This document shows, one piece after another, positions 683-53,162 of a stretch of DNA of 64,000 bases. The notes under the pieces are model-generated. The model saw only the letters and a program-made list of their open reading frames with translations. It was not told where the DNA came from and searched no databases. Within the stretch, counting starts at the first letter, position 1; each line of letters opens with the position of its first letter. The stretch covers positions 390 through 64,389 of the forward strand of contig CAZIVO010000001.1 in NCBI GenBank assembly GCA_964542765.1, read 5' to 3'. This DNA comes from an uncultured candidatus Brocadiaceae bacterium (GTDB lineage: Bacteria; Planctomycetota; UBA1135; UBA2386). A program made the translations under genes and the position numbers.

Positions 683-1282
683 ATGGCAGTACTCGCCAAC
701 CGACCAGCTCCCGACTTCACCGTGCAAGCGGTGATGGAGGATGGGTCGACCCAGGAGGTATCGCTGTCCAGCTACAAGGGCAGCCATGTCGTCCTGTTCT
801 TCTATCCCAAAGATTTCACCTTCGTTTGACCATCCGAGTTGATCGCCTTTGACCACCGTATCGGTGAGTTCAAAGAGCGTGGCGTCCAGGTCTTGGGCGT
901 CTCCATCGACGACGCGGAGTCTCATGCAAAATGGCGTGAGACAGCCATCAACGAGGGCGGCATCGGGCCGGTCCAGTATCCACTACTTTGCGATCCGGAC
1001 CGCAGCATGACCAATGCTTACGATCTGCTGCACGAGGAGAGCACCTTCTCGCTGCGCGGCACCTTCCTGATCGACAAGGATGGAGTGGTGCAGAGCCAGG
1101 TCGTCAACAACCTGCCGCTGGGTCGAGATATTGACGAGACCCTGCGGATGGTCGATGCACTTCAGTTCCTCGAGACCGAAGGCCAGGTTTGTCCAGCCGG
1201 TTGGTCGAAGGGCAAGCCGGGCATGACTCCCAGTGAAGAGGGGGTCAAGGCTTACCTGGCGGACAACGCCGACAGCCTTTAG
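683..1282 (+). CDS. typical 2-Cys peroxiredoxin (AhpC/Prx1 family) with in-frame UGA at 827-829 at the peroxidatic-Cys position; predicted selenocysteine-containing enzyme
   Basis: ATG 683 is preceded by AAAAGAGG. ORFs 455..829 and 839..1282 share one frame and are separated only by TGA 827-829. Read-through gives [19 protein letters not shown] (family motif FYPLDFTFVCPTE). The resolving-Cys motif EGQVCPAGW is present, and the joined length of 199 aa is normal for the family. Confidence 0.85.
844..879 (+). promoter_or_regulatory. candidate bacterial SECIS hairpin downstream of UGA 827-829
   Basis: Hand-folded imperfect hairpin. The core is CACCG/CGGUG (854-858/862-866) with a UAU loop (GUAUC if the closing pair opens). 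It extends to 844/879 with three single-nucleotide 3' bulges and starts 15 nt after the UGA. Confidence 0.5.
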
Positions 1283-17049: not shown

Positions 17050-18072
17050 TTACTTGGTGCCCAAGGTCATGGAGAGACCGTTGGAGAGGGCAAAGTTGGG
17101 CGAGCGGATGACGAGGGCTTGTATTTCGGCCGAACCACCGTTGAGGGTTGGACTCATCAGATTGGCTGGCAGGGTGGTTGATCCATTTTTTGCCGCCGTA
17201 CTGAGGACTATTACCGGCAGCTTCAGCTCGATCAGGATCGAGCATCCGCCGAGCTTGATCGGTGTCCCGGCCTTGGACAGTCCCAGCGCGAGGGCCACAA
17301 CTTGTCCTGATGCTGTTGGCGCAATCCGGAAGCCGTAATCACGGTTGCCGAGCGCGGGAATGGATGCCGCGATGAGACTTGGAGCCACAATATTGCCGAC
17401 AGCACAGGAGCTGCCGTGAGTGTTGGTCCTGGCATTGGGGTGGTTGTGTGCCAGCGGCGTGGGTGTGGTGTCGCGGAAGAACGCTGATGCCGGAGTTGGC
17501 TCGGCAGCAGCCGTGTAGTCCAAGGAGAGGGTGTCCGATGCCAGGGGTGATGGGGCTGCTTGGCCGCTCCGCCAGCGCCCACCTGCAACGGCGATGTTTT
17601 CACGTTTTTGTCCGGGGACTCCCCAGCTGACCCAGTCTTGAATGGCCGCTGGGTCATTCATCATGATGTTCTGCTGGGTATTGAAGAGCGCCAATGCGCC
17701 ACTCACCTGACTGAGCGGTTCCGCCTTGAGGGCGAAGAGGAAGTGATACACCGTATTGCCGGTCCAGATATCCTTCTTCGTGCTGGGGATGACGGCCGAG
17801 AGCCAATGAACGCGCAGGTAGGCCCCCGGTAAGATCTCTGTTCCTGAGGGAAACCCGAACCAGTAGTTGTTGGCCATGTTCGGCGTTTTGGTCGCCTGGT
17901 AGATCGCCCATTGTGAGAGGCCGACCTTGTTCGAACCCATGTTCAAGAGCTCGATCCACTGGGTGCCCCCGTTCCCGGCGTCGAAGTTGATTTCGCTGAT
18001 CACGACCTGTGACCGACTGGTTGCGGCGAGGAGAAGTGCCGCGCAGATACCTAGAGAGAATGTTTTTTTCAC
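17050..18072 (-). CDS. secreted lamin-tail-domain (LTD) protein carrying the shared C-terminal module
   Basis: GTG 18072 starts a signal peptide VKKTFSLGICAALLLAATSRSQ. LTD signature VVISEINFDAGNGGTQWIELLN. The last 122 aa (17050-17418) resemble the tails of six other secreted proteins in the window. The upstream part of ORF 17050..18552 looks non-coding. Confidence 0.7.
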   Translation of the reverse strand: MKKTFSLGICAALLLAATSRSQVVISEINFDAGNGGTQWIELLNMGSNKVGLSQWAIYQATKTPNMANNYWFGFPSGTEILPGAYLRVHWLSAVIPSTKKDIWTGNTVYHFLFALKAEPLSQVSGALALFNTQQNIMMNDPAAIQDWVSWGVPGQKRENIAVAGGRWRSGQAAPSPLASDTLSLDYTAAAEPTPASAFFRDTTPTPLAHNHPNARTNTHGSSCAVGNIVAPSLIAASIPALGNRDYGFRIAPTASGQVVALALGLSKAGTPIKLGGCSILIELKLPVIVLSTAAKNGSTTLPANLMSPTLNGGSAEIQALVIRSPNFALSNGLSMTLGTK

Positions 18073-18321
18073 CGGTCGCACTCTTTGTTTTTGGGCTCGA
18101 TGGGACCCGGAGAAACCCGGGTTATGGGCGGAGGAACCGCAAGCAAGGATACCACACCACATGAAAGATCGGGGGCACGGGGGGCTCAAGGCCTTGCTCC
18201 AAAATGGTCGATAGAAGAGGAGTTGGGGCTGTGGCCCCATTGCGGCCATGTAATGGGGAACTGGCCGTTGTCGGCTTTTGCGAGAAGCGCAGATCTTTTG
18301 GCTCGGATGGGATGAATTGAC

Positions 18322-19218
18322 ATGGTGATCACGTGGAATCTTGGATTGGCATTGGCCCTTGCGATGCCGGTGGCATCTGACTCTGGCTGTTGCAGTGCCG
18401 AGCCCGTGCCGACGACGCTGACCGCGCTGCGCAAGAACCCTGAAGCTTTCAGGAATGTTTGGGTCACCTTCCCGGTGCAGTTCGCATCGATAGGGAAGGT
18501 TTCCAATCCTTTTTTCACGAGGTTCGTGCCGTCGGAATATGCAAATTTTCATGCCTGGGGAGGCGAACAGGCGATCTGGCGCAAGCCGGAATACGACAAT
18601 GCCTTCGGCCTGCTATTTCTTTCCAAGGGAAGCCAGCATCTGGACAGGCTGTTCCAGCTGAAGCTCTACGACCGGGTCAGGTGCAAGGCGATCGTTCGCG
18701 ATGCTTTTCAGGGCCAGCCGTGGGTGGAGGTTGTTGAACTCGAGCGATTGCCTCACAAGGTCAACACCGCGACCCTCAGCCACATTTATCGTGGCGAGCA
18801 GCACATGGCCAAGGGCAAGTGGAACCGAGCTATTTCGGAGCTTTCCCTGGCGCCGATGGCGAGTATTCCGGCCACCGTCAAGGCTTCGGTGCACGGTAGC
18901 CTGGGGGAGTGCTACCTGAAGATTGGCGAGTCTGCGGCCGCCATCAAGCAGCTAGACATGGCGATGGCCTTACTCGGCGACGAGACCACGGCCGGGATTC
19001 GCCGCCTGCATGCCGCAGCCAAAATAGGACCAGCAGCCGAGATTGACCGACGGGTCAACAGGCGGTCGATCAAGGATCACGAGAGACCCATGTGGGAAGC
19101 CTTCGAGCCGGCCGTGGCTTTGAAGAGCACCACAACCGGGAAGGAAGAGAACCCGAAGAGTGGGCCGGGCGGTCCCACTCATCCGGCGCAAACCACGACC
19201 CCGTCCAGTTCGCGATAG
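18322..19218 (+). CDS. hypothetical secreted protein with TPR-like C-terminal half
   Basis: Signal-like N-terminus LGLALALAMPVASD. It is the only long ORF here and is followed by a strong intrinsic terminator. Confidence 0.55.
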   Translation: MVITWNLGLALALAMPVASDSGCCSAEPVPTTLTALRKNPEAFRNVWVTFPVQFASIGKVSNPFFTRFVPSEYANFHAWGGEQAIWRKPEYDNAFGLLFLSKGSQHLDRLFQLKLYDRVRCKAIVRDAFQGQPWVEVVELERLPHKVNTATLSHIYRGEQHMAKGKWNRAISELSLAPMASIPATVKASVHGSLGECYLKIGESAAAIKQLDMAMALLGDETTAGIRRLHAAAKIGPAAEIDRRVNRRSIKDHERPMWEAFEPAVALKSTTTGKEENPKSGPGGPTHPAQTTTPSSSR

Positions 19219-23411: not shown

Positions 23412-23738
23412 TCAGATCGTCACGACTTTTTCGGCCCGATCGATCTCGCGCAGGATCGTGTCCATGTCGGAGACACTCCCGGTTGCGGCCTCGATCCCGA
23501 AATGCTCGACACAGGTGCCGCAGGGCAGGACGTCGACGCCGTTTTCGTGCAGGAGGGTCAACTCGGTGAGCACGGGCGAGTCCTGGCTCGCGAGCTTGAC
23601 GCCGGAGTTGAACAAGGCGATGGCGGTCAACTCGTCCATGCTGATTGCCTTGCGCAGGAAGGTGCCGAGCACCTTCCTGCCGAGATCCCGGTCGCCGTGG
23701 CCCATTTGATCCTTGTTGATGATGAGGACTGTTTTCAT
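23412..23738 (-). CDS. DsrE-fold protein resembling the C-terminal domain of the selenium-metabolism protein YedF (TIGR03527-like), stand-alone
   Basis: ATG 23738 is preceded by AAGGAA. MKTVLIINKDQMGHGDRDLGRKVLGTFL...FNSGVKL...VDVLPCGTCVEHFG...DMDTILREIDRAEKVVTI matches my recollection of the YedF C-terminal pattern (mG.Gd.eLG, N.GV.L, CGTC, ...kvi). Confidence 0.6.
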   Translation of the reverse strand: MKTVLIINKDQMGHGDRDLGRKVLGTFLRKAISMDELTAIALFNSGVKLASQDSPVLTELTLLHENGVDVLPCGTCVEHFGIEAATGSVSDMDTILREIDRAEKVVTI

Positions 23739-23955
23739 CCGCTGTGTTCCTTTTCTGGTGTGGTGATCGTCGGCCGTCAAGATCCTGCCCGACACGCGGC
23801 CCGACCTCAAGCGAGTTGCTGACCGATGGTGATCGGGGCGTGCTTGTGAATGCAACGCACACGTAACGAATGAAAACTTTTAAAATCATCTCCCCCGATA
23901 TGGTCGGAAAGAGGAAATCACGTATCGATCAATCCAACCTGCCGCGAGAAAAGCC

Positions 23956-25341
23956 ATGATCTTCGCGAAAGCAAATCTTTCCCACCCGTTCGCACAGCGT
24001 GTGAGCGCAACAGCCTTGACGATGGCGTGCCTGCTCTTTGGGCAAGGCATGACTGCCCAGGGAGGATCAACTCCCAGGTGGACCTTCAAGCCCGATGCGG
24101 GGCATCGGGTGATTCCTGGCACGAACTGCGCGCCGATGGTCGTTTCTTCGACTGAGTACTACCTCAATTACGTCACCGTTCGGACACAGTGGATGGCGAA
24201 ATCCACCGATGGATTGAAATTCACCAATCCGACCCGATACCGCGACATTCGCTACAACCCTCATGTCATCGAGATGCCCAAGCGAGACGCGAACGGCAAT
24301 CGCATTTGGCGCAAGTACCGGCACGACATGAATACCGGCTACTTCTACAGCGAGAGTTCGACCGATCGGGTGAACTTCACCAAGGACCCAGGCGTCCGCT
24401 ATACCCCGCATCCGAGTGACAAGGGCCGGGTCGGAGTGCATTGCCAGTTTACCGACAACAAGGGCGGCGTGGTCTTGCTCTACATCGGAGATATGCAGCA
24501 AGGCGGTGTCAACAATGTGCGCCGCGCCTATTCCACCGACAACGGCTGGACCTTCAAGTGGGACCGTGGCAACGTTTTCGATGACGCCAGGTACGGTGGC
24601 GGTGGCTGGAGCTATGTCGATCCCCGGCAGTGCAAGCTGCCCGATGGCAGGATCGCGATTTTTGTCATGCAGCAAGGGGCCCGGCCGCCGCACCCGCCAC
24701 ACCGCAAGGTGGGTACGATCCACTGCTTCTTGAGTGACGACGGCGATACCTTCACGAAGGAGCCTTATCTCAGCCTTCGCCCCGAGGACTTCACGGAGTT
24801 TCCGGTTTACTCGCTGAATGACCCTTGGGTGGTGCTCTTGCCCGACGGTCGCTACCGGATGTATGTCACCGGGACTGTGCCGGACCCATCGAGTCCTGGG
24901 AATTACACCCAGGCCATCATCAGTGCCGTGACCGAGAGCAACTTTGGCAGTGGCTGCAAGGGTTCCTCGGGCCAGCGCCCTGTGATCGGTCAGCTGGGAG
25001 AGCCTTCCGTCGGCAGTGCCAGCTACAAGGTCTCGCTGAGCGATGGGCCAGCCCGCGGGGTGGTGGCCTTGTGTCTGGGCGTTTCCAGTACGCGGTGGGG
25101 GTCTTTGACGCTCCCGCTCGATCTGAGCTCCCTGGGAATGACAGGGTGCGAACTTTTGGTGTCACCGGAGTTGTCCTTGAGCAGTTCGGCGACGAGTGGC
25201 CGGGCTACGGTGAGCGTGCCGATTCCTGACAATCCGAAGCTGCGTCGCGCCAGAGCCTATGCGCAGTGGTTTTGCCTCGACCCGGGGGCGAACAGGACCG
25301 GGATCACCGCGTCTGACGGATTACGGATCGATATCTACTGA
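23956..25341 (+). CDS. secreted Asp-box (BNR-like) beta-propeller protein, glycoside-hydrolase-like, with the shared C-terminal module
   Basis: Signal-like N-terminus. Repeated S-x-D-x-G-x-x-F/W boxes are present (STDGLKF, STDRVNF, STDNGWTF, SDDGDTF). The last 129 aa (24952-25341) form the shared tail. Confidence 0.65.
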   Translation: MIFAKANLSHPFAQRVSATALTMACLLFGQGMTAQGGSTPRWTFKPDAGHRVIPGTNCAPMVVSSTEYYLNYVTVRTQWMAKSTDGLKFTNPTRYRDIRYNPHVIEMPKRDANGNRIWRKYRHDMNTGYFYSESSTDRVNFTKDPGVRYTPHPSDKGRVGVHCQFTDNKGGVVLLYIGDMQQGGVNNVRRAYSTDNGWTFKWDRGNVFDDARYGGGGWSYVDPRQCKLPDGRIAIFVMQQGARPPHPPHRKVGTIHCFLSDDGDTFTKEPYLSLRPEDFTEFPVYSLNDPWVVLLPDGRYRMYVTGTVPDPSSPGNYTQAIISAVTESNFGSGCKGSSGQRPVIGQLGEPSVGSASYKVSLSDGPARGVVALCLGVSSTRWGSLTLPLDLSSLGMTGCELLVSPELSLSSSATSGRATVSVPIPDNPKLRRARAYAQWFCLDPGANRTGITASDGLRIDIY

Positions 25342-25361
25342 GGGCATTGGATCACCAAGGG

Positions 25362-25402
25362 TCGCGCCGGCCGTCATCGTGAGGGTCCGGCGCGACTTTT
25401 TA
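25362..25402 (+). terminator. Rho-independent terminator
   Basis: 10-bp stem GTCGCGCCGG/CCGGCGCGAC with a 16-nt loop, followed by TTTTT, 20 nt after the stop codon. Confidence 0.6.
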
Positions 25403-25503
25403 CCCCCTTCGAGTTGTTGAAGCTTGGGGAAGTCCCCCCTCGCACAAGGGCTACTCGGACTGATATCTTGGGGCGGAACCAAACCTGGAACCGAAAGTGC
25501 TTG

Positions 25504-26043
25504 ATGCGGGTAGAACTTCTTTCTCTTGCTCTCCTCTTCATTCCCTTGGCCATGCAGGACCCAGCCCCAGCCCCGCCGAAGACCACCGTCGGTCAGCCGA
25601 AGGTGGGACAAGCGGCTCCGAAGTTCCGCTTGAACGACCATGGTGGCGCTGCCGTCAAGGTTGGCGGCAAATCGAAGACCTGGACAGTGCTGGCTTTCTA
25701 TCCGAAGGCCGCGACTCCTGGTTGAACTCGCGAGGTGTGTTCGCTGCGGGACGCAGCGGCAGGACTGACAGAGGTCGGAGCCCTCGTCTATGGAATCAGC
25801 CTGGACGACGTTGCTTCACAAGCGGCCTTCGCCAAGGCACAGAAGTTGAACTTCCCCCTTCTGAGCGATGTCGATGGCAGCGTCGCCCGGAAATATGGCG
25901 TTCTGATGGGGCTCATGCCCATGGCCAAGCGAGTTACCTTCGTGATCGACCCCAAGGGGGTGCTGCGGCACATCGACAAGAAGGTCAATGTGAAGCAGCA
26001 CGGGACCGATCTCGTGGCGTTGATTCGCGAACTGAGTCGGTGA
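25504..26043 (+). CDS. Bcp/PrxQ-type peroxiredoxin with signal peptide and in-frame UGA at 25723-25725 at the peroxidatic-Cys position; predicted selenocysteine enzyme (U-x4-C)
   Basis: ORFs 25414..25725 and 25735..26043 share one frame and are separated only by the TGA. Read-through gives LAFYPKAATPG-U-TREVCSLRD (family motif FYPkdfTPGCTxExCxFRD), followed by GISLDD and NFPLLSD. The N-terminus MRVELLSLALLFIPLAMQ is signal-like. Confidence 0.85.
25741..25759 (+). promoter_or_regulatory. candidate bacterial SECIS hairpin downstream of UGA 25723-25725
   Basis: Perfect 7-bp stem CGCUGCG/CGCAGCG (25742-25748/25752-25758) with a GGA apical loop, plus a U-G pair at 25741/25759. The hairpin starts at 25741, with 15 nt between it and the UGA. 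Confidence 0.55.
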
Positions 26044-26063
26044 AGCCTTGTCCGAAGGGATGA

Positions 26064-26210
26064 CTAGGCGAGCATCTTCAGGGCGAAATTGACCAGCAGT
26101 AGCGCGGCCAAGAGCACCATGGTGGCGCTCGGTCGCCAGGCTCGTGACGAGGTGTTCCTTTTCGGAGCGGCGCCTTGGCGATGGGGTCGATGTGGGTTTG
26201 ATGTATACAT
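26064..26210 (-). CDS. possible small tail-anchored membrane protein (48 aa)
   Basis: Hand translation gives MYTSNPHRPHRQGAAPKRNTSSRAWRPSATMVLLAALLLVNFALKMLA. It is below the ORF-track cutoff, and a basic N-terminus plus a C-terminal TM segment is the only support. Confidence 0.2.
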   Translation of the reverse strand: MYTSNPHRPHRQGAAPKRNTSSRAWRPSATMVLLAALLLVNFALKMLA

Positions 26211-26424
26211 CTCGATTCCATACCCTGCCGTGGGTTGGGATCGAGTTGGACGGAGTCCGGCCCGGGTTATTCCCGAAGTTTAGAGGCGAAGAAGCCCATC
26301 GGTTGAGGGTTTGGGGCGCATTGCCGGCCCTTGGCCAGGGCGGGACGCCCACGGAGTCGTTTCGCACCGCTGGTATCACGCGTTGGCGGAGGCTAAACAT
26401 GGCCGCCGACGACCCTATCTCCCC

Positions 26425-27384
26425 ATGTCTTGTCCTCCCTGCCTCTTCGACCGCCAACTCCTCCCCAAGCCTTGGGGGGGTAGCTCCCTTTCGTCCGCGC
26501 TCGGCATCTTGTTGCCGGACGGGGAGAAGATCGGTGAATCCTGGGAGGTCTACGACGGCCCTGAGGGCTCCAGCAAGTTGCGGAACAGCGATGTGACGCT
26601 GGCGGATCTGCTGCGCGAGGATGCGGCCGCCTTGCTCGGAGAGGGGGTGGAGATGACTCCGCAGGGGCATTTCCCGTTGCAACTCAAGTTCATCGATGCC
26701 AGCGAACCGTTGTCCGTGCAGGTCCATCCCGACCAGGAACAGGCAACTGCGGGTGGTGGTTGTGGCAAGACGGAATCCTGGGTTGTTTTGACCGCGAGCG
26801 AGGATGCTCGCATTCTGCGGGATGTGAAGGCTGGCGTTGATGCTGCGGCGCTCACGGCCGTGGCCGGCACTGGCGAGATCCAGGGCTTGTTGCACAGTTT
26901 CGTTCCACGACAGGGCGATGTCGTCCATCTGCCTCCGGGGACCATCCATTCGGTCGGACCAGGCGTTGTTCTTTACGAGATCCAGACCAACTCCGGACTG
27001 ACCTGTCGGCTGTGGGATTGGGGGCGGCCCAGAGAAATGCATATCGAGGCAGCACTCACCGCACTGCGGGTCGAGGGGTCACAGCAGTCGACCGTGACGC
27101 CGCGACCTGTCGGTGAAGGCAAGGAGCTTCTGGTCGATGAGCATGAGTTTCGATTGGAGCGATGGTACGTTTCCGTGCCGGTTTGTTTCGAGCCACAAGA
27201 TCGATTCCGGATACTGACGGTGGTCAAGGGGCATCTGGCTCTCGGCTGGCGAAGTTCCGGCCAGTGCGAGCCGCTCCAACTCCGAGCAGGGGATACGGCT
27301 CTGGTTCCAGCGCATCTCGATGCCGTTTATCTGTCGCCGATCGGCGATGTTACTCTTTTATGTGTTTCTCCCGGAGAGAGGTGA
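26425..27384 (+). CDS. manA: type I (class I) mannose-6-phosphate isomerase
   Basis: Contains KPWGG, GESWEV, LQLKFIDASEPLSVQVHPD, GKTESWVVL, VHLPPGTIHSVGPG, YEIQ and WDWGR. Confidence 0.75.
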   Translation: MSCPPCLFDRQLLPKPWGGSSLSSALGILLPDGEKIGESWEVYDGPEGSSKLRNSDVTLADLLREDAAALLGEGVEMTPQGHFPLQLKFIDASEPLSVQVHPDQEQATAGGGCGKTESWVVLTASEDARILRDVKAGVDAAALTAVAGTGEIQGLLHSFVPRQGDVVHLPPGTIHSVGPGVVLYEIQTNSGLTCRLWDWGRPREMHIEAALTALRVEGSQQSTVTPRPVGEGKELLVDEHEFRLERWYVSVPVCFEPQDRFRILTVVKGHLALGWRSSGQCEPLQLRAGDTALVPAHLDAVYLSPIGDVTLLCVSPGER

Positions 27385-28283
27385 CGGTGGCAGCTCGCAA
27401 GAAACGATCGACCGGTCGCAAACCCACCAGAAGGAGCGATACGGGCAGGAGTACTTCGCCAAAGCCGCGATCGGCGGGCAAGAAGGGCCGGCCCGCGCGA
27501 CGTTCTCCAGCCGTCAAGGTTACTCCGGCGAAGGGGCTTGCGCCGTCGTCCGACGGTTTGATTCGCCTCAATCGCTTTCTTGCGGATGCCGGCATCTGTA
27601 GCCGTCGCGCTGCCGATGAATTGATCGCCACCGGACGCATCGCGATCAAGGGCGAAGTAGTGGTCGAACTAGGTGTGCGTGTCGACCCAATGTCCACCGA
27701 AGTCTTCTTCGACGGCCAGCCGGTTCGCAGAGAGAAGAAGGTGTACGTTCTCTACAACAAGCCCAAACACGTGGTGTGCACAAACGCTGCCGGCGATGCC
27801 GGTCGCCGCGTCATTGACTTCTTACCCAAGCTTCGTGGACGAGTGTATGCCGCAGGTCGTCTCGATGCTGAATCCGAAGGCTTGCTCTTGCTCACCAATG
27901 ATGGTGATCTTGCCCAGTCGGTCACGCATCCCAGCCACGGCATCACAAAGACTTATGCAGTCGTCATCAAGGGGCGTATCGACGAGGATGGTCTGAAGAA
28001 GCTGCGCAAAGGCGTGTGGCTGTCCGAGGGAAAGACTACCGGCGCGCTGATCAAGGTCGAACGTCGCAGCCGGGATCGTAGCTACATGAAGGTGACCTTG
28101 CGCGAGGGGCGCAACCGTGAGATCCGGCGGATCTTCGCCCGCGTGGGCCACTCGGTAATCTCGCTCAAGCGTATCCGGATCGGCCGACTCAATCTCCATG
28201 GGTTGAGTAGCGGGAAGTACAGATTTCTTCGTCTGGACGAGGTCAAAGACCTTCGCGCTGATGCGGGAAGGAGTTCCGATTGA
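27381..28283 (+). CDS. rluB: RluB/RsuA-family rRNA pseudouridine synthase with basic N-terminal extension
   Basis: S4 domain (IRLNRFLADAGICSRRAADELI), catalytic GRLDAESEGLLLLTNDG, and REGRNREIRR. The start is ambiguous: GTG 27381, GTG 27387 or ATG 27360. GGAGAGAG lies at 27373-27380. Confidence 0.8.
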   Translation: MTVAARKKRSTGRKPTRRSDTGRSTSPKPRSAGKKGRPARRSPAVKVTPAKGLAPSSDGLIRLNRFLADAGICSRRAADELIATGRIAIKGEVVVELGVRVDPMSTEVFFDGQPVRREKKVYVLYNKPKHVVCTNAAGDAGRRVIDFLPKLRGRVYAAGRLDAESEGLLLLTNDGDLAQSVTHPSHGITKTYAVVIKGRIDEDGLKKLRKGVWLSEGKTTGALIKVERRSRDRSYMKVTLREGRNREIRRIFARVGHSVISLKRIRIGRLNLHGLSSGKYRFLRLDEVKDLRADAGRSSD

Positions 28284-35144: not shown

Positions 35145-36974
35145 CTAGGGGAAGATGAACCGCACCGCCTTTGAGCTCGCCGGGACCGCTACCGGCCCCT
35201 TCAGATCGAGCAGAAAGTGTGCGAGATAGCCCGGGGTTCCCTTGAGGCGTTTCACCTTTGGCAGGGGCAAGCGCAGCCCGCGCAGTCCGGTGGTGCCGAT
35301 CACGCCGACGAAGCCGGGTAACTCCAGGCTCAAGCTGAGCAGTGGGTCGTAATTGAGGGGGATGGAGGTTGGTCCGATGCGGATGCCGGGCGAACTGCCG
35401 AACGACATGCCGATGGCGTGGTTCGTGTTCTTGTTCGACAGGCCTGCTGCGAAGAGATGAAGTGCGATTCCTCCTGGGTCGGTGGCTTCGAGAGTTTCGA
35501 TTCCGGCTCGGATCGGATGAGTGGTGGCATCGGCCGCATTGGCCTTGCCGGGCGTGCCCTTGTCGCCAGCAGTGCCGAAGGATGTCACCGCGGTTTTGAA
35601 GTTGGCGGCCGTGGGCGGGGCTTCCAGATCGATGCGCTCCGCGGTCTTACCACTGCTACCAGGAAAGCCGGTGCTGTAGGAAAGGGTTTCGATCGAGCTT
35701 GCGTTATTGCGCAGGGTCAGCGAGTCCTTCGTGTTGTTCAGCGCAAAGGCTCCTGATGGCCAGGTGTGGCTGAAGGGGATGCCGCCATTGCTTGTGGAGT
35801 CTCCATCTTGAGCCAGCAGGAGTCGTTGGCCGGGAAGGATGCGATAGGGAGCGGTCACCGTGAAGGATCCCGACCCGGAGGTGATGATGAGACCGTCGAG
35901 GTTCAAGGGTCCGCCGGAGCGGTTGAAGACCTCGATGAATTCGCCCGAGGAGGTGGAGGGCGTCCGGTGCAGTTCCGAGATCACCAGATCGCCAGGTCCG
36001 GGACGGTTTCCCGAGGCTTCGTCGGTATAGAGTTCGACGCTTTCGCCGGTCACGGTCTCGATGCGGTAACGCCACCCATCGGTTTTCAGGGTCAGGTGGC
36101 CCCGCGCATTGGTGTAACCGCGGTGGCGGAGACCCCCGTTCGTGCTGAGAATCAGCGGTGAGCGCCCCCCCGATGTCAGCCGCGATAAGACGTCTTTTTG
36201 AGGTGACTGTTGGCTGTTGTTGTTGGGCACCGAGACGACGGCCACTTCGGGTGACAGGTACCGAACCAGATTGGCATTTGTCGCGTCCGAGATGCCATGG
36301 TGATTGGCGTGATAGACATCGATGTCACCGCAAGCCTTGGCCACAGGACTTTCCATGTCATAGGTTTTATTTTTGGCTCCGCCGGTCAGATCGCCACCGA
36401 GCCATAGCGAGAAATCACCGTACTCCACCTTCAGCACGATCGATGCCGAGTTCTCGTAGTTGCCGGTGCCGGTGATCTTTTGCTGGCCGACACCAAGAAC
36501 GAAGCCATCACGCGCGATCACCGTGGCCTTGGCACCGCCGCCCAGGTCGAAGACTTGACCGGGTGTGACCGTCTTGCGCTTGTTTTGCGCGGCCGCAGTG
36601 TATTTTTGGTACGAACTGTTACTGGGTGCCGATCGGGTGCCCCGGTCCCAGACCTCGGTCGTTGGCATGGCATTGATGACCTCGGGGATGCCGCCGATAT
36701 GGTCGGAGTGGTAGTGGCTGGCGACGAACCAATCGATCTTCGTGGCACCCAGAGCCTTCAGCTTGGGAAGCATCGCGCGGGTCCCCATCTGGGGGTAGCC
36801 CGCATCGAAGACCATGACCTTGCCGGTGGGGCCGATGATGATGGTACCGTCACCCCAGGAAACCACATTGACGAAGACCACGGTGAGCCCCTTGGGCGGC
36901 TGGGTAGGGTCGCCCGAAGGACCCTGCGCGAAGAGGGTGGATGTGGCGAGGAGAGCAAAGGCGAGGCGAAGCAT
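35145..36974 (-). CDS. secreted metallo-beta-lactamase-fold hydrolase (ComEC-C-terminal-like) + lamin-tail domain (LTD) + shared C-terminal module
   Basis: ATG 36974 starts the signal peptide MLRLAFALLATSTLFAQG. MBL motif SHYHSDHIGG. LTD signature LVISELHRTPSTSSGEFIEVFN. The tail spans 35145-35474. The N-terminal 107 codons of ORF 35145..37295 were rejected. Confidence 0.75.
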   Translation of the reverse strand: MLRLAFALLATSTLFAQGPSGDPTQPPKGLTVVFVNVVSWGDGTIIIGPTGKVMVFDAGYPQMGTRAMLPKLKALGATKIDWFVASHYHSDHIGGIPEVINAMPTTEVWDRGTRSAPSNSSYQKYTAAAQNKRKTVTPGQVFDLGGGAKATVIARDGFVLGVGQQKITGTGNYENSASIVLKVEYGDFSLWLGGDLTGGAKNKTYDMESPVAKACGDIDVYHANHHGISDATNANLVRYLSPEVAVVSVPNNNSQQSPQKDVLSRLTSGGRSPLILSTNGGLRHRGYTNARGHLTLKTDGWRYRIETVTGESVELYTDEASGNRPGPGDLVISELHRTPSTSSGEFIEVFNRSGGPLNLDGLIITSGSGSFTVTAPYRILPGQRLLLAQDGDSTSNGGIPFSHTWPSGAFALNNTKDSLTLRNNASSIETLSYSTGFPGSSGKTAERIDLEAPPTAANFKTAVTSFGTAGDKGTPGKANAADATTHPIRAGIETLEATDPGGIALHLFAAGLSNKNTNHAIGMSFGSSPGIRIGPTSIPLNYDPLLSLSLELPGFVGVIGTTGLRGLRLPLPKVKRLKGTPGYLAHFLLDLKGPVAVPASSKAVRFIFP

Positions 36975-36979
36975 GGCGG

Positions 36980-36991
36980 TCAGTATAGCCG
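36980..36991 (-). promoter_or_regulatory. -10-like element CGGCTATACTGA placed 7 nt before the ATG (possible leaderless transcript)
   Basis: On the minus strand the sequence reads GGCTATACTGACCGCC-ATG. TATACT ends 7 nt before the start codon and there is no SD sequence. It is related to the GGCTACATTGA element. Confidence 0.3.
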
Positions 36992-37060
36992 CCGATGTCA
37001 CGGGCCGTTGCCTTGGCGCCCCCGCGGCCCTGATATGGCCCGGACACCGGCTCGGGAAGG

Positions 37061-38236
37061 CTATTCCTGTGCGGGAGCCGGGAGAGATTCTCCGGGGCGG
37101 TAGCGGATCGCGTGGGCGAAGATGTAGTTCATCATCGGCAAGCCGAGCACGAGGCCCCAGATGCCGAAGATCTTGCCGCCGACGGTCAGGATGGCGAGGA
37201 CCAGAACCGGGTTCATCCGCAGATGATGGCCGTAGATGTTCGGGTTCAAGAAGTAGGTTTCGACGAAGTGGACGACCAGGATCAGGATGATGCACGCGAG
37301 CATCAACCCCGGGCCTGAGAGCATCATCTCCGGCCCCGAAGTCTGTAGAGCCACCAAGCAGATGGGTGTGGAACTGATGAAGACCCCGGCGACCGGGATG
37401 AAACTGCAGAAGAAGACGATCGTTGCCAGCACGACGATGTTCGGGATTCCCAGGATCGCCAGTCCGACCGAGGTCAGGGCCGTATTGACCAGGGCGATCA
37501 GGAACTGCGCTTCCAGCGCGCGGCCGAGCATGGTGCCGAAGTGCTGGACGCTCTCGGCAACCTCGTTGTAGATCCAGCCAATCTTGGTTTTTGCGAGGGC
37601 TTGGGTTGCACGCGTCAGCTTCTTCAGATCCAAGACGATCAGGAAGGAAAACAGCAGGGACAGGAAGAAAGCCGAGCCAATCGCGATGAGCGGCATGCCG
37701 ATGTTTTGCAGGATGGCCAGCACGCTGTCGAGGCTGCGCTTGCCCTCGATTGCGTCACCACCTTCGCCGGGTTGACTCCCGGCTACGCTGTCACCTTCGC
37801 CGGTGTTGAGCAGCGCGCTGATACCTTGCTCGGTGCTGAAGTCAGCGGGGATAGGCACCCCCCAGTCGGTGGCGACATCCTTGAAGGTGTCGTCCAGGTT
37901 TCCGAGGTAGGTCTTGTAGTTCTTGGCGAGGTTGACGGCCTGATCTTGAATATGAGGCACGACGAAGAAACCGGTTCCGGTCAGGATGCCGGTGAAAAGA
38001 AGGAAGACCAGCACCACGCGCACCATGCGGCTGGCGATCCAGCGACTCAGCTTGTCGACTCCATGTGCCTGGATATAGGCGAAGACGAAGGTCAGGAAGA
38101 CGAGCAGGAAGAAGGCGCGCAGGATGTAGATGATGGCAGCGATCGAACCCCACACGAAGGTCAGGGTTCCGATGCGGAAGATCCGGTCCCAGGGTGCGGG
38201 TAAGGGTTTCAGTGGTGGCTCGGGATGGCTGGCCAT
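37061..38236 (-). CDS. AI-2E family transporter (PerM/YhhT, UPF0118)
   Basis: About eight TM segments with the family-typical C-terminal pattern FIPVAG..., VHFVETYFLNPNIYG and GLVLGLP. Confidence 0.85.
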   Translation of the reverse strand: MASHPEPPLKPLPAPWDRIFRIGTLTFVWGSIAAIIYILRAFFLLVFLTFVFAYIQAHGVDKLSRWIASRMVRVVLVFLLFTGILTGTGFFVVPHIQDQAVNLAKNYKTYLGNLDDTFKDVATDWGVPIPADFSTEQGISALLNTGEGDSVAGSQPGEGGDAIEGKRSLDSVLAILQNIGMPLIAIGSAFFLSLLFSFLIVLDLKKLTRATQALAKTKIGWIYNEVAESVQHFGTMLGRALEAQFLIALVNTALTSVGLAILGIPNIVVLATIVFFCSFIPVAGVFISSTPICLVALQTSGPEMMLSGPGLMLACIILILVVHFVETYFLNPNIYGHHLRMNPVLVLAILTVGGKIFGIWGLVLGLPMMNYIFAHAIRYRPGESLPAPAQE

Positions 38237-48391: not shown

Positions 48392-50665
48392 TCAGTAGAT
48401 CACGGTGGTGAGGACGTTGGTGGCCGTCAGTGGCAGCTTGAGATTGTTGGGATCGTAGGAGACCCCTTGCCAGTAACACTGCATGGCGGGGATGTTCTTG
48501 GAGAAGGTGAAGTTGAGTTTTCCATGACCGTTGGCGCCGGCGCTCAGGGTGAAGGCCTCGAGCAGATTGGTGAATCCGTTGCCGATCGAAAGGTTGACGA
48601 GGCCTGATAGGCGGCTCGGACGGTTGCTCAGCGAGACCAGGACGAGAGACTTCCAGTGACTGCCACTGTGGATTTCGAATGGTTTGGAGGGAAAGCCTCG
48701 CAGCACGATGGTTGGCCCACCGAGGACTCCGGGGTGATTGCCGGTCACGGAGAGATTTAGCGGATTGCTTTGGCCGGCCGCATTGGAGACCAGAATCTGG
48801 TGTTTGCCGATGTTGTGAGGGCTCGGCGGGGTCAATTTCAGCGTCGTGTTGTTGACGATGCGAAAGTTGGAGACAGATTTTCCTCCCAGGGTCAGCTGGG
48901 AGATGCGACCGAGATTGCTACCGGTCAGCGTGACTTCCCTGGGCTGCCAGGAGGTCACTGACGATGGGCTGATCGACGTCAGTTTCGGTTGCTTTACCGA
49001 GCCTCCCTTGCCCAGCCCGCTGACTGCGAATTCTACCGACCATGTCCCGAAGGTCGGCGCGTTCGTCCAGGTTGCGACGAGGCGGTAGGTTCCGGATTTC
49101 GGCGTGAAGGTGATCTTCTCGTAGCTGTTGTACTTGCTGGTGTCGGAACCGACGAGTTTGTTGGCGGCATCGAAGATGGCGAGGTCGAGATCGTAGGGCA
49201 CCATCCCGTTCTTGCGCATCCACGTCATCGTCACGGACAAGGGCACGCCAGCTTTGGGCGTGAAACTCGCCGTCCAGGTTTTGTTCGGTGTGGTGATCCT
49301 GTCGGTGCGGTAATCCACGGCCAGCGCAGCCTTCACGGCCTGGTCGCAATCGAGAATGCCGCAGCCGTACGAGTTGCGCTTGGTCTGGGCGCCCTTCGTC
49401 GAGTTGAGGAGGATAGCTTTCGCTTCGCAGGCACTCATCTTTGCATCGACCTGTCGCACCAGCGCCGCACCACCGGCGACCATGGGCGCGGACATGGAGG
49501 TGCCGCTATTGATGACTGTCGAGCTTTCATTGTCCGGGGCGAGCGACCGCACCGTATCCCCGACGGCAACAATGTCCGGGTAACGTCGCGGCCACCGAGA
49601 ATTTTGGATCGGTCCCAGCGCAGAAAAGGCCGAGATGCTCAGGCTCGACTTGTCGATCGATCCGACGGCGAGACCGTTCCAACCATTCTGGCTTCTGGTG
49701 GTGTTGCTGCCGCTGTTGCCGGCGGAAACGGTGATCAGGACGTCGGCGTTGTAAGCGGCATTGTCCAGCGCGATCTGGACGGGGTGGCCGATGTCGGGAG
49801 ATCCGGAGAAGGAGTTGTTGGCGACGGCGATGTGATGCTTGGTTCGGTTGGTCGCCACCCACTGCCATGCGCTGATGATCGAACTGTCGAGAGCTGAGCA
49901 GTTAGGGTTATCGGAGATCTTGACTCCCACGAGCCATGCTTCGGGAGCGATACCCTCATCCTTGTCCCAGGCGTTCGCGACCGAGCCACTGACGTGGGTG
50001 CCATGCCCGCAGATATCTTCGCTGCCGTGGCTGCTGGTGCCGGTGGCTACCAGCAGGCGGCTGCCCTGGATCCCACCCCCCTTGCGGTCGCTGGGATTCC
50101 CGTCCCGGTAGTATCCGCGGTGGGGCCGATTCGAGGTTGCCATGCTGGCGTCCACCCCGGTGTCGAGGATGGCCACGGCGACGCCCCGACCCTCGATCTC
50201 TACCCCTTTGGTCGTTTTACGGTCGTTGGCATCCTTGGCGTTGTGATGGGTTCTGTCCCGGGCGACGCGATTGGTTGGGCGACGGTAGAGATCGGGTGAC
50301 AGCCGTTCGATATTGTTCAGCGCGCGCAGCTTGGCGGTTTGCGCATCCGGAAGTTTCACGGCGGCGCCGTTGATGATCCACCATTGCTGCGTCACCGCGC
50401 CGCCCATCGCTTCCACGGCATGAACGAAATCCGCCTGATCGCGACGGACAGCCTCGTCGAGCCTGCTCACGATGGTGGCGATCTCGGCGGCCGGCCGCCG
50501 GCTGGTGATCGCCGCCCGAAACGCTTCGAGATCGAAGCTGCGGGCACGGAAGGTCACGATCCAGCGCGTGGTAGGAGCCTTCTCGACCTCGGGCTCTTGC
50601 GCTGCCGGCAGGCCGGCTAGCAGGGCGAGGGTGACGAGTTTGCAGGCGTGGAGACCCAGAGTCAT
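48392..50665 (-). CDS. secreted S8 (subtilisin) serine peptidase with I9-like propeptide, IPT/TIG domain and the shared C-terminal module
   Basis: Signal peptide MTLGLHACKLVTLALLAGLPAAQ. Catalytic triad motifs VAILDTGVD, HGTHVSG and SGTSMSAPMVAG. IPT-like segment PKLTSISPSSV...LTGSNL. The tail spans 48392-48742. Confidence 0.85.
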   Translation of the reverse strand: MTLGLHACKLVTLALLAGLPAAQEPEVEKAPTTRWIVTFRARSFDLEAFRAAITSRRPAAEIATIVSRLDEAVRRDQADFVHAVEAMGGAVTQQWWIINGAAVKLPDAQTAKLRALNNIERLSPDLYRRPTNRVARDRTHHNAKDANDRKTTKGVEIEGRGVAVAILDTGVDASMATSNRPHRGYYRDGNPSDRKGGGIQGSRLLVATGTSSHGSEDICGHGTHVSGSVANAWDKDEGIAPEAWLVGVKISDNPNCSALDSSIISAWQWVATNRTKHHIAVANNSFSGSPDIGHPVQIALDNAAYNADVLITVSAGNSGSNTTRSQNGWNGLAVGSIDKSSLSISAFSALGPIQNSRWPRRYPDIVAVGDTVRSLAPDNESSTVINSGTSMSAPMVAGGAALVRQVDAKMSACEAKAILLNSTKGAQTKRNSYGCGILDCDQAVKAALAVDYRTDRITTPNKTWTASFTPKAGVPLSVTMTWMRKNGMVPYDLDLAIFDAANKLVGSDTSKYNSYEKITFTPKSGTYRLVATWTNAPTFGTWSVEFAVSGLGKGGSVKQPKLTSISPSSVTSWQPREVTLTGSNLGRISQLTLGGKSVSNFRIVNNTTLKLTPPSPHNIGKHQILVSNAAGQSNPLNLSVTGNHPGVLGGPTIVLRGFPSKPFEIHSGSHWKSLVLVSLSNRPSRLSGLVNLSIGNGFTNLLEAFTLSAGANGHGKLNFTFSKNIPAMQCYWQGVSYDPNNLKLPLTATNVLTTVIY

Positions 50666-50885
50666 TGGTGTCAGATCGTGAGTTCGGGCGATGGTGCTTT
50701 CGCCGATGAGGCCGAGAAACGGGCTCCAAAGTCTACCCCGCAATGACCGTGCTGTGCGCCGTTCCGTATGCGACAGGCGCGCGCCGTGCGGATTTCCGGT
50801 GCGGTTGGGTTGCCGGGCGCTGTCAGTCCCATCAGAGCGAGGTTTGGAGCCCTGTGAGGTGCCTGCTGACTCTTTCGGGAACCTC

Positions 50886-53162
50886 TCAAAAGATGGAGGT
50901 GGTGAGGACGTTGGTCGTTTCCAGCGGGGTTTGCAGCCGCTTCGGATCGAAGGGGATGGTCTGAAAGAAGATCGCCTGGGAGAGGATGTTCTTGGGGATG
51001 TTCAGGATCAGCTGGGCATGGCCGCGGCCATCGCACTTGAGATTGGCGACTTCCCACAGGGCCAAGAAATGGCTGCCGATACCGAGGTCGACGACGTTGG
51101 GGATGCGGCTTGGCACCTTGTAAGGAGACAGCAGGACGAGGGCCCGCCAGCCGGCGTCGCTGTAGATGTCGTAGGGCGAGGTCTTGCTTCCGCGCATCAC
51201 GATGGCCGGCCCCTCGAAGGTGCCGGGATGGCTACCGTGGATGTTCATGGTCAGCGCGTTGCTGGTGCCGCAACTGGTTGTGATGTTCACCAGCCGAAGG
51301 CCGATGGTGGTGGGTTTGGGCAGGAGGAAGGAAATCTTGGTCGGCGAAGTCGCCGTGAATGTTCGCACGTCTTGATCGCCGACCGAAATCTTGAGGATGG
51401 TATTGAAGTTGGTACCGGTCAAGGTGATCGACCGTGCCGTCTGGTGGGATGCTGTGTTCGGGCTGACGCCGGTCAAGACTGGCTTGCTGAGGCAGGGTTT
51501 GCCGAGGCCGGAAATCGCGAAGTTCACGCTGCGGTTGCCATAGATGGGGTTCGTCCAGGCGATGTCGGCGCGGTAGAGAGCGGTCCGCACGGGCGTGAAG
51601 GAAACCTTCTCGTAGCCGTTGACAGGATTCAGATCGCCGACGACGAGCGCGCCACGGTCATCGTAGATCCGAAGATCGAGATTGTCGGGGATTTCTCGGT
51701 CTCGCCGCAGCCAGGTCAAGGTGACTGTTTTGGTGATTCCCTTGAGGACGCCGAAGGTGATCCGGCGGAGTTTCACCGGGTTGGTCATGCGCCCGGATTG
51801 CACGTCGCCGGTGAGGGCGGCAGTCACTGCGCGGTCGCAGCGCAAGACGCCAAGACCGTAGGCATTGCGATCCTTCTTGGGGGCTTCGGTCGTGTTCAAA
51901 AGGATCGCCTTGGTCTCGATGGCTGACAGGCGCGGTTCGGCTTGGCGAATCAGCGCGGCAGTGCCGGCCACGAGGGGAGCGGCGAAGGATGTGCCGCTCG
52001 CCTGGCTGAAGGTCTGCTCGCTGTTTTGCAGGGTGCAGTAGAGGTCTTTTCCGACAGCGACCATATCGGGATAGGTGCGTGCCGAACCGTGGAGAGGCCC
52101 TTGTGCGGAGAAGCTCGAGACAGTCTTGCTCTTCTTGTCGACGGAGCCGACGGCGATGCCGTTGAAGGCGCTTTGGCTGGCTGTCGTTGTCGCCGCCTTG
52201 TTGCCGGCGGACACCGTGATCAAGACGTCTGCATTGCGTGCGGTTGAATCGAGCGCTAATTGCACGGGGTCGTCGAGCTTCGGCGATCCGGAGAAGGAGT
52301 TGTTGGCGACGGCGATGTTGTGTGCGACGCGATGTCGAGCGACGAGTTGCCACGCGCTGATGATCCAACTGCTGAAGGCCTCCCCCTTGTTGTTGGCCAT
52401 CTTGATGCTGACGACCCAGGCTCCTGGAGCAACGCCATCATCGATCCGTGGGTCCGGGTCCCAGTTGTTGGCATTGGCGCAACCTGAAACAAAGGTGCCG
52501 TGCCCATGCTGGTCTTCGGTGCCCAGATTGCTGGTTCCCAGCTGGGCCTTGATGAGGCTTCCCTTGTACCCGCCTCCGGTGTGGTTGCTGGGATTGCCCC
52601 CCCGATAGTAGGCGCGGTGGGGCCGTCCCGTTCCGCCCATGTCCGCGTCGATACCAGTGTCCAAAATGGCGATGGCCAAACCATCGCCGCGAACATTCTT
52701 GCCGCCGACCATCATCTGGTTGGCCTGGTCGGCGCGGTGGTGACTCAAGCCGGTGGCTTCGCGCAGTGTGGCGCGGTGGATGGTGTCGGGAACGAGGCGG
52801 CGAATGTTCGCCAGTTGTTCGATTTCGGTGAGTCGGTTGGACGGGATTTCGATGGCGGCTCCATTGATGACCCACCACTGGTGGCGGACCTTTCCGCCGG
52901 CGGCCGCGACCGCCTCGACGAAGGCTTCTTGATCGCGCAGTACGGCGGCATCGAGATCTGCCACCAGGCGTTCGATCTCCGCAGCCGATCGGCGTTCGAG
53001 GATGGCCTCGCGAAACCCTGTGAGATCGAAGGATCGCTGTTCGAACAGCGCGATCACCTTGCGGGTCCGTGGTTCGGCCTGATCCTGGGCGGCGAGGATG
53101 GCTGATGAAGCCAGCCAGGCGCCTGCCAGGAGGGCGGGGATATTGATGTGTCGAGGCGTCAA
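50886..53162 (-). CDS. secreted S8 (subtilisin) serine peptidase, tandem paralog of 48392..50665 with the same architecture
   Basis: TTG start at 53162 (no in-frame ATG nearby). Catalytic triad motifs IAILDTGID, HGHGTFVSG and SGTSFAAPLVAG, followed by an IPT-like domain. The tail spans 50886-51236. Confidence 0.85.
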   Translation of the reverse strand: MTPRHINIPALLAGAWLASSAILAAQDQAEPRTRKVIALFEQRSFDLTGFREAILERRSAAEIERLVADLDAAVLRDQEAFVEAVAAAGGKVRHQWWVINGAAIEIPSNRLTEIEQLANIRRLVPDTIHRATLREATGLSHHRADQANQMMVGGKNVRGDGLAIAILDTGIDADMGGTGRPHRAYYRGGNPSNHTGGGYKGSLIKAQLGTSNLGTEDQHGHGTFVSGCANANNWDPDPRIDDGVAPGAWVVSIKMANNKGEAFSSWIISAWQLVARHRVAHNIAVANNSFSGSPKLDDPVQLALDSTARNADVLITVSAGNKAATTTASQSAFNGIAVGSVDKKSKTVSSFSAQGPLHGSARTYPDMVAVGKDLYCTLQNSEQTFSQASGTSFAAPLVAGTAALIRQAEPRLSAIETKAILLNTTEAPKKDRNAYGLGVLRCDRAVTAALTGDVQSGRMTNPVKLRRITFGVLKGITKTVTLTWLRRDREIPDNLDLRIYDDRGALVVGDLNPVNGYEKVSFTPVRTALYRADIAWTNPIYGNRSVNFAISGLGKPCLSKPVLTGVSPNTASHQTARSITLTGTNFNTILKISVGDQDVRTFTATSPTKISFLLPKPTTIGLRLVNITTSCGTSNALTMNIHGSHPGTFEGPAIVMRGSKTSPYDIYSDAGWRALVLLSPYKVPSRIPNVVDLGIGSHFLALWEVANLKCDGRGHAQLILNIPKNILSQAIFFQTIPFDPKRLQTPLETTNVLTTSIF

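Follow-up and report, generated by a model that had tools for sequence, protein, structure and literature searches.

Does a TGA codon in the middle of a peroxiredoxin gene mark its end, its decay or the insertion of selenocysteine (Sec)? This question is raised by positions 25504..26043 (forward strand) of a 64,000-nucleotide stretch of DNA from an uncultured candidatus Brocadiaceae bacterium (Planctomycetota; assembly GCA_964542765.1, contig CAZIVO010000001.1). The whole stretch is referred to as the window. We conclude, with a probability of about 0.87, that 25504..26043 is one gene for a peroxiredoxin (Prx) of the Bcp/PrxQ subfamily in which UGA is read as Sec. This conclusion is carried by the structure of the gene, its subfamily, a TGA that is conserved among homologs, a hairpin specific to the TGA forms, selection that acts on either side of the TGA, and the ordinary role of TGA as a stop codon in the window. 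The resolving Cys and the active-site Arg are retained.

One reading frame interrupted by TGA

Direct reading of positions 25300-26200 gives open reading frames (ORFs) 25414..25725 and 25735..26043 on the forward strand, both in one frame and with only TGA 25723-25725 between them. An earlier annotation, made by a model from the letters alone and called here the sequence-only reading, had described the two ORFs in this way, and the ORF map bears it out; its other statements on the letters proved correct as well. ATG 25504 as start agrees with N-termini of homologs, and the true stop of the gene is TGA 26041-26043. Read-through from this ATG yields a product of 179 residues, MRVELLSLALLFIPLAMQ...VLAFYPKAATPG[U]TREVCSLRD...VTFVIDP...LSR, in which the Sec codon is codon 74. 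Features of the gene are the following:

25504..26043, + strand: probable Bcp/PrxQ-type peroxiredoxin selenoprotein gene, 179 codons plus stop, one in-frame UGA
25504..25557, + strand: signal-peptide- or membrane-anchor-like N-terminus MRVELLSLALLFIPLAMQ, residues 1-18, recognised by hydrophobicity
25702..25725, + strand: active-site motif P67-K-A-A-T71-P-G-U74 (PxxxTxxU) with the probable Sec codon TGA 25723-25725
25738..25740, + strand: resolving Cys79 (TGT), five residues past Sec74, invariant column in alignment A1
25741..25758, + strand: putative selenocysteine insertion sequence (SECIS) element, TCG CTG CGG GAC GCA GCG (18 nt, encodes S80-A85), invariant in 10 Sec genes
25930..25932, + strand: Arg143 codon (R-V-T-F-V-I-D), invariant column in alignment A1

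All five positions expected at the active site (P67, T71, position 74, C79 and R143) are invariant in alignment A1. We take Arg143 to be the conserved peroxiredoxin active-site arginine, following the general active-site set of Pro, Thr, Cys and Arg. These four residues are stated for peroxiredoxins in PMC3322552.

Affiliation to the Bcp/PrxQ subfamily

With Cys put at the TGA position, the protein matches the AhpC-TSA profile PF00578 over its full length (1-124 of 124, E = 2.2e-35, 121.7 bits, cut-off 26). Among NCBIfam models, Bcp NF006960 comes first with 100 bits, followed by PrxQ NF053650. The 100 bits fall short of the equivalog cut-off of NF006960 (140 bits); the window protein is a member of the Bcp/PrxQ subfamily, but E. 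coli Bcp is not its equivalog. The PrxU model NF040737 scores 50.4 bits against a cut-off of 270 and the Prx-SUH model NF045827 scores 25.3 bits against a cut-off of 298, so that the protein classes with neither of them.

Structural comparison gives the same placement. The best chain in PDB is 5epf, M. tuberculosis BcpB (E = 1.6e-24), and further top chains are 2ywn, 3drn, 3hjp and 3gkk, with Sulfolobus Bcps and Xanthomonas PrxQ among the matches. The ...TPGCTKEAC... segment of 5epf aligns with ...TPG[U]TREVC... of the window, peroxidatic (Cp) and resolving (Cr) positions being matched. An AlphaFold (AF2) model was made for P0002, the closest full-length Cys form, with 79 homologs. The model has a mean pLDDT (predicted local distance difference test score) of 90.8 and places both redox residues in helix 76-87; its top Foldseek matches in PDB are Bcp/PrxQ proteins with TM (template modelling) scores of 0.82-0.88. 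Two statements of the sequence-only reading are thereby upheld: the alignment to Bcp structures puts UGA at the peroxidatic Cys with the resolving Cys five residues on, and the NCBIfam, PDB and Foldseek matches show the rest of the sequence to be Bcp-like. A Cp-to-Cr spacing of five residues marks atypical 2-Cys Bcp/PrxQ enzymes. Since Bcp/PrxQ proteins are the top matches among models and structures alike, and since Pro67, Thr71, position 74, Cys79 and Arg143 are invariant, we assign the protein to the atypical 2-Cys Bcp/PrxQ enzymes, its motif being U-x4-C.

The same comparison bears on the possibility that the ORFs are two separate genes, one for a 73-residue secreted peptide and the other, starting at GTG 25735, for a 102-residue thioredoxin-fold fragment. 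The gene callers of NCBI, JGI and Logan annotate them so. The pieces, however, jointly form one continuous Prx domain, and neither could fold as a unit by itself: the N-terminal piece breaks off at the active-site loop, and the C-terminal one is devoid of the peroxidatic residue and of strands β1-β3. Homologs are as a rule full-length single ORFs, and both the frame and the 9-nt spacing are kept exactly in every Sec form (see below). We therefore regard two separate genes as very improbable.

Conservation of TGA among homologs

We examined which codons homologous genes carry at the position of the TGA. The protein search mostly retrieved full-length "peroxiredoxin Q/BCP" proteins of 52-65% identity. 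It also retrieved 13 fragments of 102-124 residues, all of which start with (E)VCSLRD, that is, at the first start codon past TGA. In all eight cases where DNA of a fragment was fetched, an upstream ORF was present in the same frame, ending in TGA at ...TPG[TGA]T-x-E-. A further TGA form (L015, from a metagenome-assembled genome (MAG) of Planctomycetota) came from a scan of genome collections. The tenth Sec form, P0055 (L174 508-1038, JGI), is printed with Trp at the site, and its DNA reads TGA.

Among the 163 loci first scanned, the peroxidatic codon is TGC in 102, TGT in 48, TGA in 13 and TAA or TAG in none; in 150 Cys-form loci, the peroxidatic Cys thus stands opposite the TGA. The search pattern of the genome and metagenome scans contained G-C-T, and among the matches listed almost all are distant Cys forms, which serve as controls and give no measure of Sec-form frequency. 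In total, TGA is found at the site in 10 distinct genes, 59-80% identical in DNA, and it is never replaced by TAA or TAG. Their sources are NCBI MAGs and assemblies of JGI, ENA and Logan, and their gene neighbourhoods differ. The ratio of nonsynonymous to synonymous differences (pN/pS) is 0.41 upstream of TGA and 0.53 downstream. With values of about 0.4 and 0.5 on the two sides, both halves are maintained as protein.

The codon is also present in other assemblies of near-identical sequence. The Logan assembly from run SRR11744915 (L002) is 100% identical over window positions 24534-26561, and a MAG contig of GCA_030748075.1 (L001, JASMMR010000415.1) is 99.83% identical over 23489-28077 and keeps the TGA. 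Since an independent read-level assembly and a 99.8%-identical strain both carry it, the TGA is not an assembly artefact. Two checks suggested by the sequence-only reading, read support for the TGA and comparison of orthologues for Cys/Sec alternation, have therefore come out in its favour: the assembly of SRR11744915 contains the codon, and TGA in 10 distinct genes stands opposite TGC or TGT in 150 loci.

Reassignment of the genetic code would offer another explanation, with TGA meaning Trp or Gly (code 4 or 25) and Trp or Gly at the site. Public calls of P0055 (Bcp type) and P0122 (AhpC type) indeed print W there. This is refuted by stop usage: TGA ends 22 of the 33 well-supported genes of the window, and the code is thus standard. 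The DNA is that of Planctomycetota with 61% G+C, and an enzyme with Trp or Gly as its peroxidatic residue would be inactive. The printed W is artefactual and stems from the code that the gene caller applied; both loci are flagged as not translating to the query. The chance that a reassigned code accounts for the locus is practically negligible.

Hairpin downstream of TGA

A hairpin, CGCTGCG-GGA-CGCAGCG (25742-25758), begins 16 nt past the TGA. Its 7-bp stem is formed by 25742-25748 with 25752-25758, and GGA 25749-25751 makes the loop. The sequence-only reading had pointed to this GC-rich stem, its GGA loop and its distance from the UGA, all of which stand; the energy of folding lends the hairpin nothing further. 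For the surrounding 63-nt region z = -0.44, and 60 of 200 shuffled sequences fold at least as well. Both hairpins discussed for the window are unremarkable in comparison with shuffles (z = -0.44 for Bcp, z = -1.14 for the one in 683..1282, see below). Thermodynamics alone is insufficient to validate a SECIS in DNA of 61% G+C; since the folding energy is unremarkable, the hairpin needed comparative support.

Such support is provided by the Sec genes. The 18-nt block is identical in 10 of 10 distinct Sec genes, with codons varying on either side of it, and it is the longest invariant run of the codon alignment, the next longest being 8 nt. When columns with invariant residues of at least fourfold degeneracy are considered, a single codon is used in five of five columns inside the hairpin and in none of 28 outside (Fisher test, p ~4e-6); the Asp codon inside the hairpin is likewise kept single. 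The hairpin codons TCG, CGG and GCA are minor choices for those residues elsewhere. Mean synonymous difference (pS) is 0.00 in the six codons of the hairpin, compared with 0.58 upstream and 0.55 downstream. Invariance of 18 nt amid nearly saturated synonymous sites therefore indicates that the hairpin is under an additional constraint at the RNA level.

The stem is peculiar to the TGA forms. All 10 Sec forms have seven of seven pairs, and at least six pairs are reached in only 2 of 151 Cys forms, which mostly have 2-4. One is L013, with 6 pairs; the other is L173, the gene of P0002, with 7 pairs including two G-U. Both belong to the Cys forms nearest to the window protein, with which L013 shares 60% and P0002 63% identity. 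Where Cys forms have the peptide SLRDA(A) as well, it is written in different codons, which break the stem. The motif occurs once in the window and hence is not a shared repeat.

The hairpins of the two exceptional Cys forms read TCGCTGCGGGATGCGGCG in L173 320-874 (P0002; 7 pairs, two G-U) and TCGCTGCGGGACGCCGCG in L013 (6 pairs). In a search of the whole window with Rfam at gathering thresholds, only tRNA-Val was detected, and at permissive E-values the region 25650-25850 gave only noise (nhaA-I and proV, E above 2).

With these data, the possibility of a pseudogene carrying a nonsense mutation, or of a TGA due to sequencing or assembly error, the hairpin being incidental in both cases, can be weighed. 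It would agree with the NCBI call on the near-identical MAG contig, which keeps only the C-terminal 102 residues (P0001), and with the folding energy of the hairpin, which is not unusual. Yet TGA is present in 10 distinct lineages and never gives way to TAA or TAG, frames are intact with pN/pS of 0.4-0.5 on both sides, and the independent read assembly is identical. Neutral decay would not leave the hairpin block invariant, and one shared contaminating sequence is excluded by DNA identities of 59-80%. Decay or error thus has a very small probability, and a gene recoded at UGA remains our preferred reading.

N-terminus and cellular location

The sequence-only reading also noted a signal-like N-terminus, and the hydrophobic stretch is confirmed: M-R-V-E, with one Arg before the stretch, is followed by LLSLALLFIPLAM, whose maximum Kyte-Doolittle value is 2.68 over 11 residues. 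All nine Sec forms tested have an equivalent hydrophobic segment, as have 76 of 79 Cys forms. N-termini of homologs typically consist of one to three basic residues, about 11-15 hydrophobic ones and a linker rich in Pro, Ala and Lys. The conserved domain starts near residue 33-37, in agreement with the alignment to solved Bcp structures, which begins at query residue 33; in the P0002 model, the N-terminal ~30 residues are unstructured or of low confidence (pLDDT 52-69).

By the crude -3/-1 rule, acceptable signal-peptidase sites are seen in several homologs (LLA|QEP, ALA|LQD, AMA|QQP, TLA|SQS). No conserved lipobox is present in N-termini of the family. These features make it likely that the whole subfamily is exported or anchored in the membrane, and the segment may be an uncleaved anchor.

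Proposed mechanism

From the data above we infer incorporation of selenium, an interaction with SelB, the redox chemistry and export of the protein. The ribosome would read UGA 25723-25725 as Sec. The 17-nt hairpin would act as a bacterial SECIS, recruiting SelB·GTP·Sec-tRNASec to the UGA. As the hairpin sits inside the coding sequence for S80-A85, these six codons would be constrained twice, at the RNA level and at the protein level, which makes the locus a clean natural case of dual coding: an 18-nt SECIS frozen in the S80-A85 codons right after the resolving Cys. By analogy with the family, the U74 selenolate would attack peroxide and become a selenenic acid, which Cys79 in the same helix would resolve with formation of an intramolecular Se-S bond. 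A thioredoxin-fold reductant would then regenerate the enzyme, a TlpA-like one if it resides in the envelope. The N-terminal segment suggests export or anchoring in the envelope, where the enzyme would work like PprX of Caulobacter.

An alternative to Sec is that UGA is read through with Cys or Trp by means of a near-cognate or specialised tRNA (e.g. a tRNASec-like Cys-tRNA carried by SelB), the hairpin being a read-through or SelB signal. It is true that conserved TGA, hairpin and two-sided selection prove recoding and not the identity of the residue, and that Sec machinery is not seen in the window. Against this, the site is that of a redox-active peroxidatic residue in a family with experimentally proven Sec forms (PrxU, as cited in PMC13188914), and the geometry of the hairpin, 16 nt past UGA with a G-rich apical loop, fits a bacterial SECIS. 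Insertion of Cys could be had more simply by changing one base to give TGC or TGT, the codons found in 150 homologs; moreover, Planctomycetes with full Sec machinery are documented (PMC4807772). Insertion of another amino acid is thus unlikely in our opinion.

Several observations nevertheless weigh against an exported selenoprotein. The folding energy of the hairpin is unexceptional in 61% G+C DNA. Its invariance means that the evidence is one of conservation, with neither compensatory substitutions nor covariation, and Rfam holds no curated bacterial SECIS model with which the hairpin could be scored. In the Pfam scan of 50 window ORFs, selA, selB and selD were not found, and tRNA-Sec was found neither in the window (ARAGORN, Rfam) nor in 12 Sec-form loci (ARAGORN). 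As to export, the only cleavage site that the window protein offers by the -3/-1 rule is PLA|MQD with a non-canonical Pro at -3, and reductases of DsbD, ScsB and TlpA type are absent from the same Pfam scan.

Flanks of related loci likewise yielded no Sec machinery genes, and the Sec-decoding trait of the organism is one we infer. Some Planctomycetes carry selA, selB, selC and selD together with SECIS-positive Prx genes (PMC4807772).

Taken further, the data may point to an unrecognised Planctomycetota clade of cell-envelope Sec peroxiredoxins, a Sec counterpart of PprX with a minimal 17-nt SECIS, placed in codons of the active-site helix and frozen at every nucleotide across lineages whose other synonymous sites are saturated; we hold this broader view only tentatively, its chances being slightly below even. 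If it is true, recognition by SelB in Planctomycetota would be unusually sequence-specific, and selenium-based scavenging of peroxide would take place outside the cytoplasm, with an envelope reductant for the Se-S bond. Confirmed export would suggest that selenium-dependent peroxide removal can take place in the cell envelope.

Origin of the Sec form

To outline relationships between Sec and Cys forms, a neighbour-joining tree was constructed. Eight Sec forms cluster together, with the Cys form P0002 (L173) among them, and L174 and L015 fall elsewhere among Cys forms, in a tree that rests on ~140 residues and is not robust. Identity of the SECIS in all Sec forms argues that the Sec form arose once, with occasional reversion to Cys thereafter. 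L173 and L013 may be recent Sec-to-Cys revertants in which a fossil, partly decayed SECIS persists.

Second selenoprotein candidate in the window

The sequence-only reading had reported that another class of peroxiredoxin in the window shows the same change of Cys to UGA:

683..1282, + strand: AhpC/Prx1-type peroxiredoxin, selenoprotein candidate, FTFV[U]PSE; TGA 827-829; hairpin ~844-879

This is corroborated by a marine homolog of 74% identity (TARA metagenome contigs L175-L177), which has TGA at the same codon. Its stem-loop is kept by compensatory changes, CACCG/CGGUG being replaced by CAUCG/CGAUG and UUUGA/UCAAA by AUUGA/UCAAU. Unlike the invariant SECIS of the Bcp gene, the hairpin of 683..1282 thus shows true covariation. 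In the homolog search for 683..1282, the matches listed were full-length Cys forms, and the Sec form surfaced only via its mistranslation with W. A conserved second Sec-Prx lends indirect support to the Sec trait of the organism.

Database annotation and gene neighbourhood

In L001, 2247-2555 (corresponding to window 25735-26043), NCBI names the C-terminal 102 residues alone "peroxiredoxin" (P0001), and truncation of this kind affects at least 12 further database entries, 102-124 residues long. In L174 508-1038 (P0055, JGI) and L175 116-718 (P0122, ENA/TARA), the Sec TGA is called Trp, as in a code of the 4/25 type.

Gene calls of NCBI, JGI, ENA and Logan are thus all wrong here, the Sec genes being truncated, split or given Trp at Sec, and the selenoproteome of Planctomycetota MAGs is therefore under-counted. 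Residues W at conserved Cys sites in protein databases offer an easy route to hidden selenoproteins.

The gene is directly preceded by ORF 23956..25341 (forward strand, 461 residues), which has no Pfam match at E <= 1e-5. This ORF is co-linear with the Bcp gene in L001 and L002 and does not occur beside Sec-Bcp genes of other lineages. A scan of 25250-26350 for promoters and terminators gave none.

Elsewhere in the window, Lamin Tail Domains (PF00932) are encoded at 17050..18552 and 35145..37295 (both on the reverse strand), in one case as a fusion with a metallo-beta-lactamase fold, and two large subtilases adjoin at 48392..53162 (reverse strand). These Lamin Tail Domain proteins and subtilases look like typical secreted-protein content of Planctomycetes. 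A candidate island at 55.6-59.3 kb was rejected, since the ORFs of low GC3 (G+C content at third codon positions) found there are frame artefacts.

Comparison with known systems

Alternation of Sec and Cys at the peroxidatic site of peroxiredoxins is textbook selenoprotein biology, and the finding overturns nothing in current understanding. In the minimal E. coli SECIS element, the stem starts 11 nt past UGA, and 17 nt is the size of its upper stem-loop. The window hairpin resembles the E. coli fdhF-type SECIS and the bSECISearch consensus in being a stem-loop within the coding sequence, soon after UGA, with a G-rich apical loop. It differs from the E. coli element in that its stem begins at 16 nt instead of 11 and that it has no bulged U; its loop is the triloop GGA or, with the closing pair open, the pentaloop GGGAC.

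PrxU, which resembles Prx1/AhpC, is found in the cytoplasm of anaerobic Firmicutes. It is the experimentally characterised prototype (Eubacterium acidaminophilum; NF040737) of the Sec-Prx family, with which the window protein would share Sec in place of the peroxidatic Cys, the PxxxTxxC motif, the AhpC/TSA fold, a SECIS hairpin directly after UGA and Cys orthologs that are far commoner. In contrast to PrxU, the window protein belongs to the Bcp/PrxQ subfamily, has its resolving Cys five residues on and carries a hydrophobic N-terminal extension. Sec-Prx (PF00578, TxxU) is an established prokaryotic selenoprotein family with several independent Cys-to-Sec conversions (PMC1794560, PMC13188914), and at the level of sequence the gene appears to belong to it.

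With Bcp/PrxQ enzymes (NF006960; 5epf; 3drn and 3hjp, Sulfolobus Bcp1 and Bcp4; 3gkk and 5iiz, Xanthomonas PrxQ), the protein has in common the motif ...TPG(C/U)TxExC..., the placing of Cp and Cr five residues apart on one helix, and the conserved Arg. The named enzymes have a peroxidatic Cys and no N-terminal extension; the window protein has a Sec codon and an extension of ~32 residues.

A literature search by name for a bacterial Bcp/PrxQ selenoprotein returned nothing specific; accordingly, we found no specific published description of a Bcp/PrxQ-type Sec member with a signal-like N-terminus, although similar Planctomycete candidates are already listed (PMC4807772). In Planctomycete P1, a SECIS-positive "peroxiredoxin" and an "AhpC/TSA" are each split into two IMG genes (PMC4807772, S8 and S9 Tables). 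The phylum, the pair of Prx types, the split gene calls and closest matches with Cys are all as in our window, and the P1 genome carries selA, selB, selC and selD. The P1 pair consists of single-genome predictions with no cross-lineage analysis of conservation, and it is likened here by description, not by sequence.

For the probable location of the protein, the nearest parallel is PprX of Caulobacter crescentus, a member of the BCP/PrxQ subfamily with a signal sequence and the first cell-envelope peroxiredoxin (PMC3322552). PprX is reduced by TlpA, which gets its electrons from ScsB, and its resolving Cys is discussed as being placed unlike that of other PrxQ members (PMC3322552). PprX uses Cys where the window protein has a Sec codon, and the two are likened by description only. 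They are alike in Prx subfamily and in having an N-terminal export signal, a putative one in the window protein. PprX offers a plausible model of how an exported Bcp could be recycled. Seen beside these systems, the gene described here would add a signal-bearing clade of Bcp/PrxQ type to the known Sec-peroxiredoxins.

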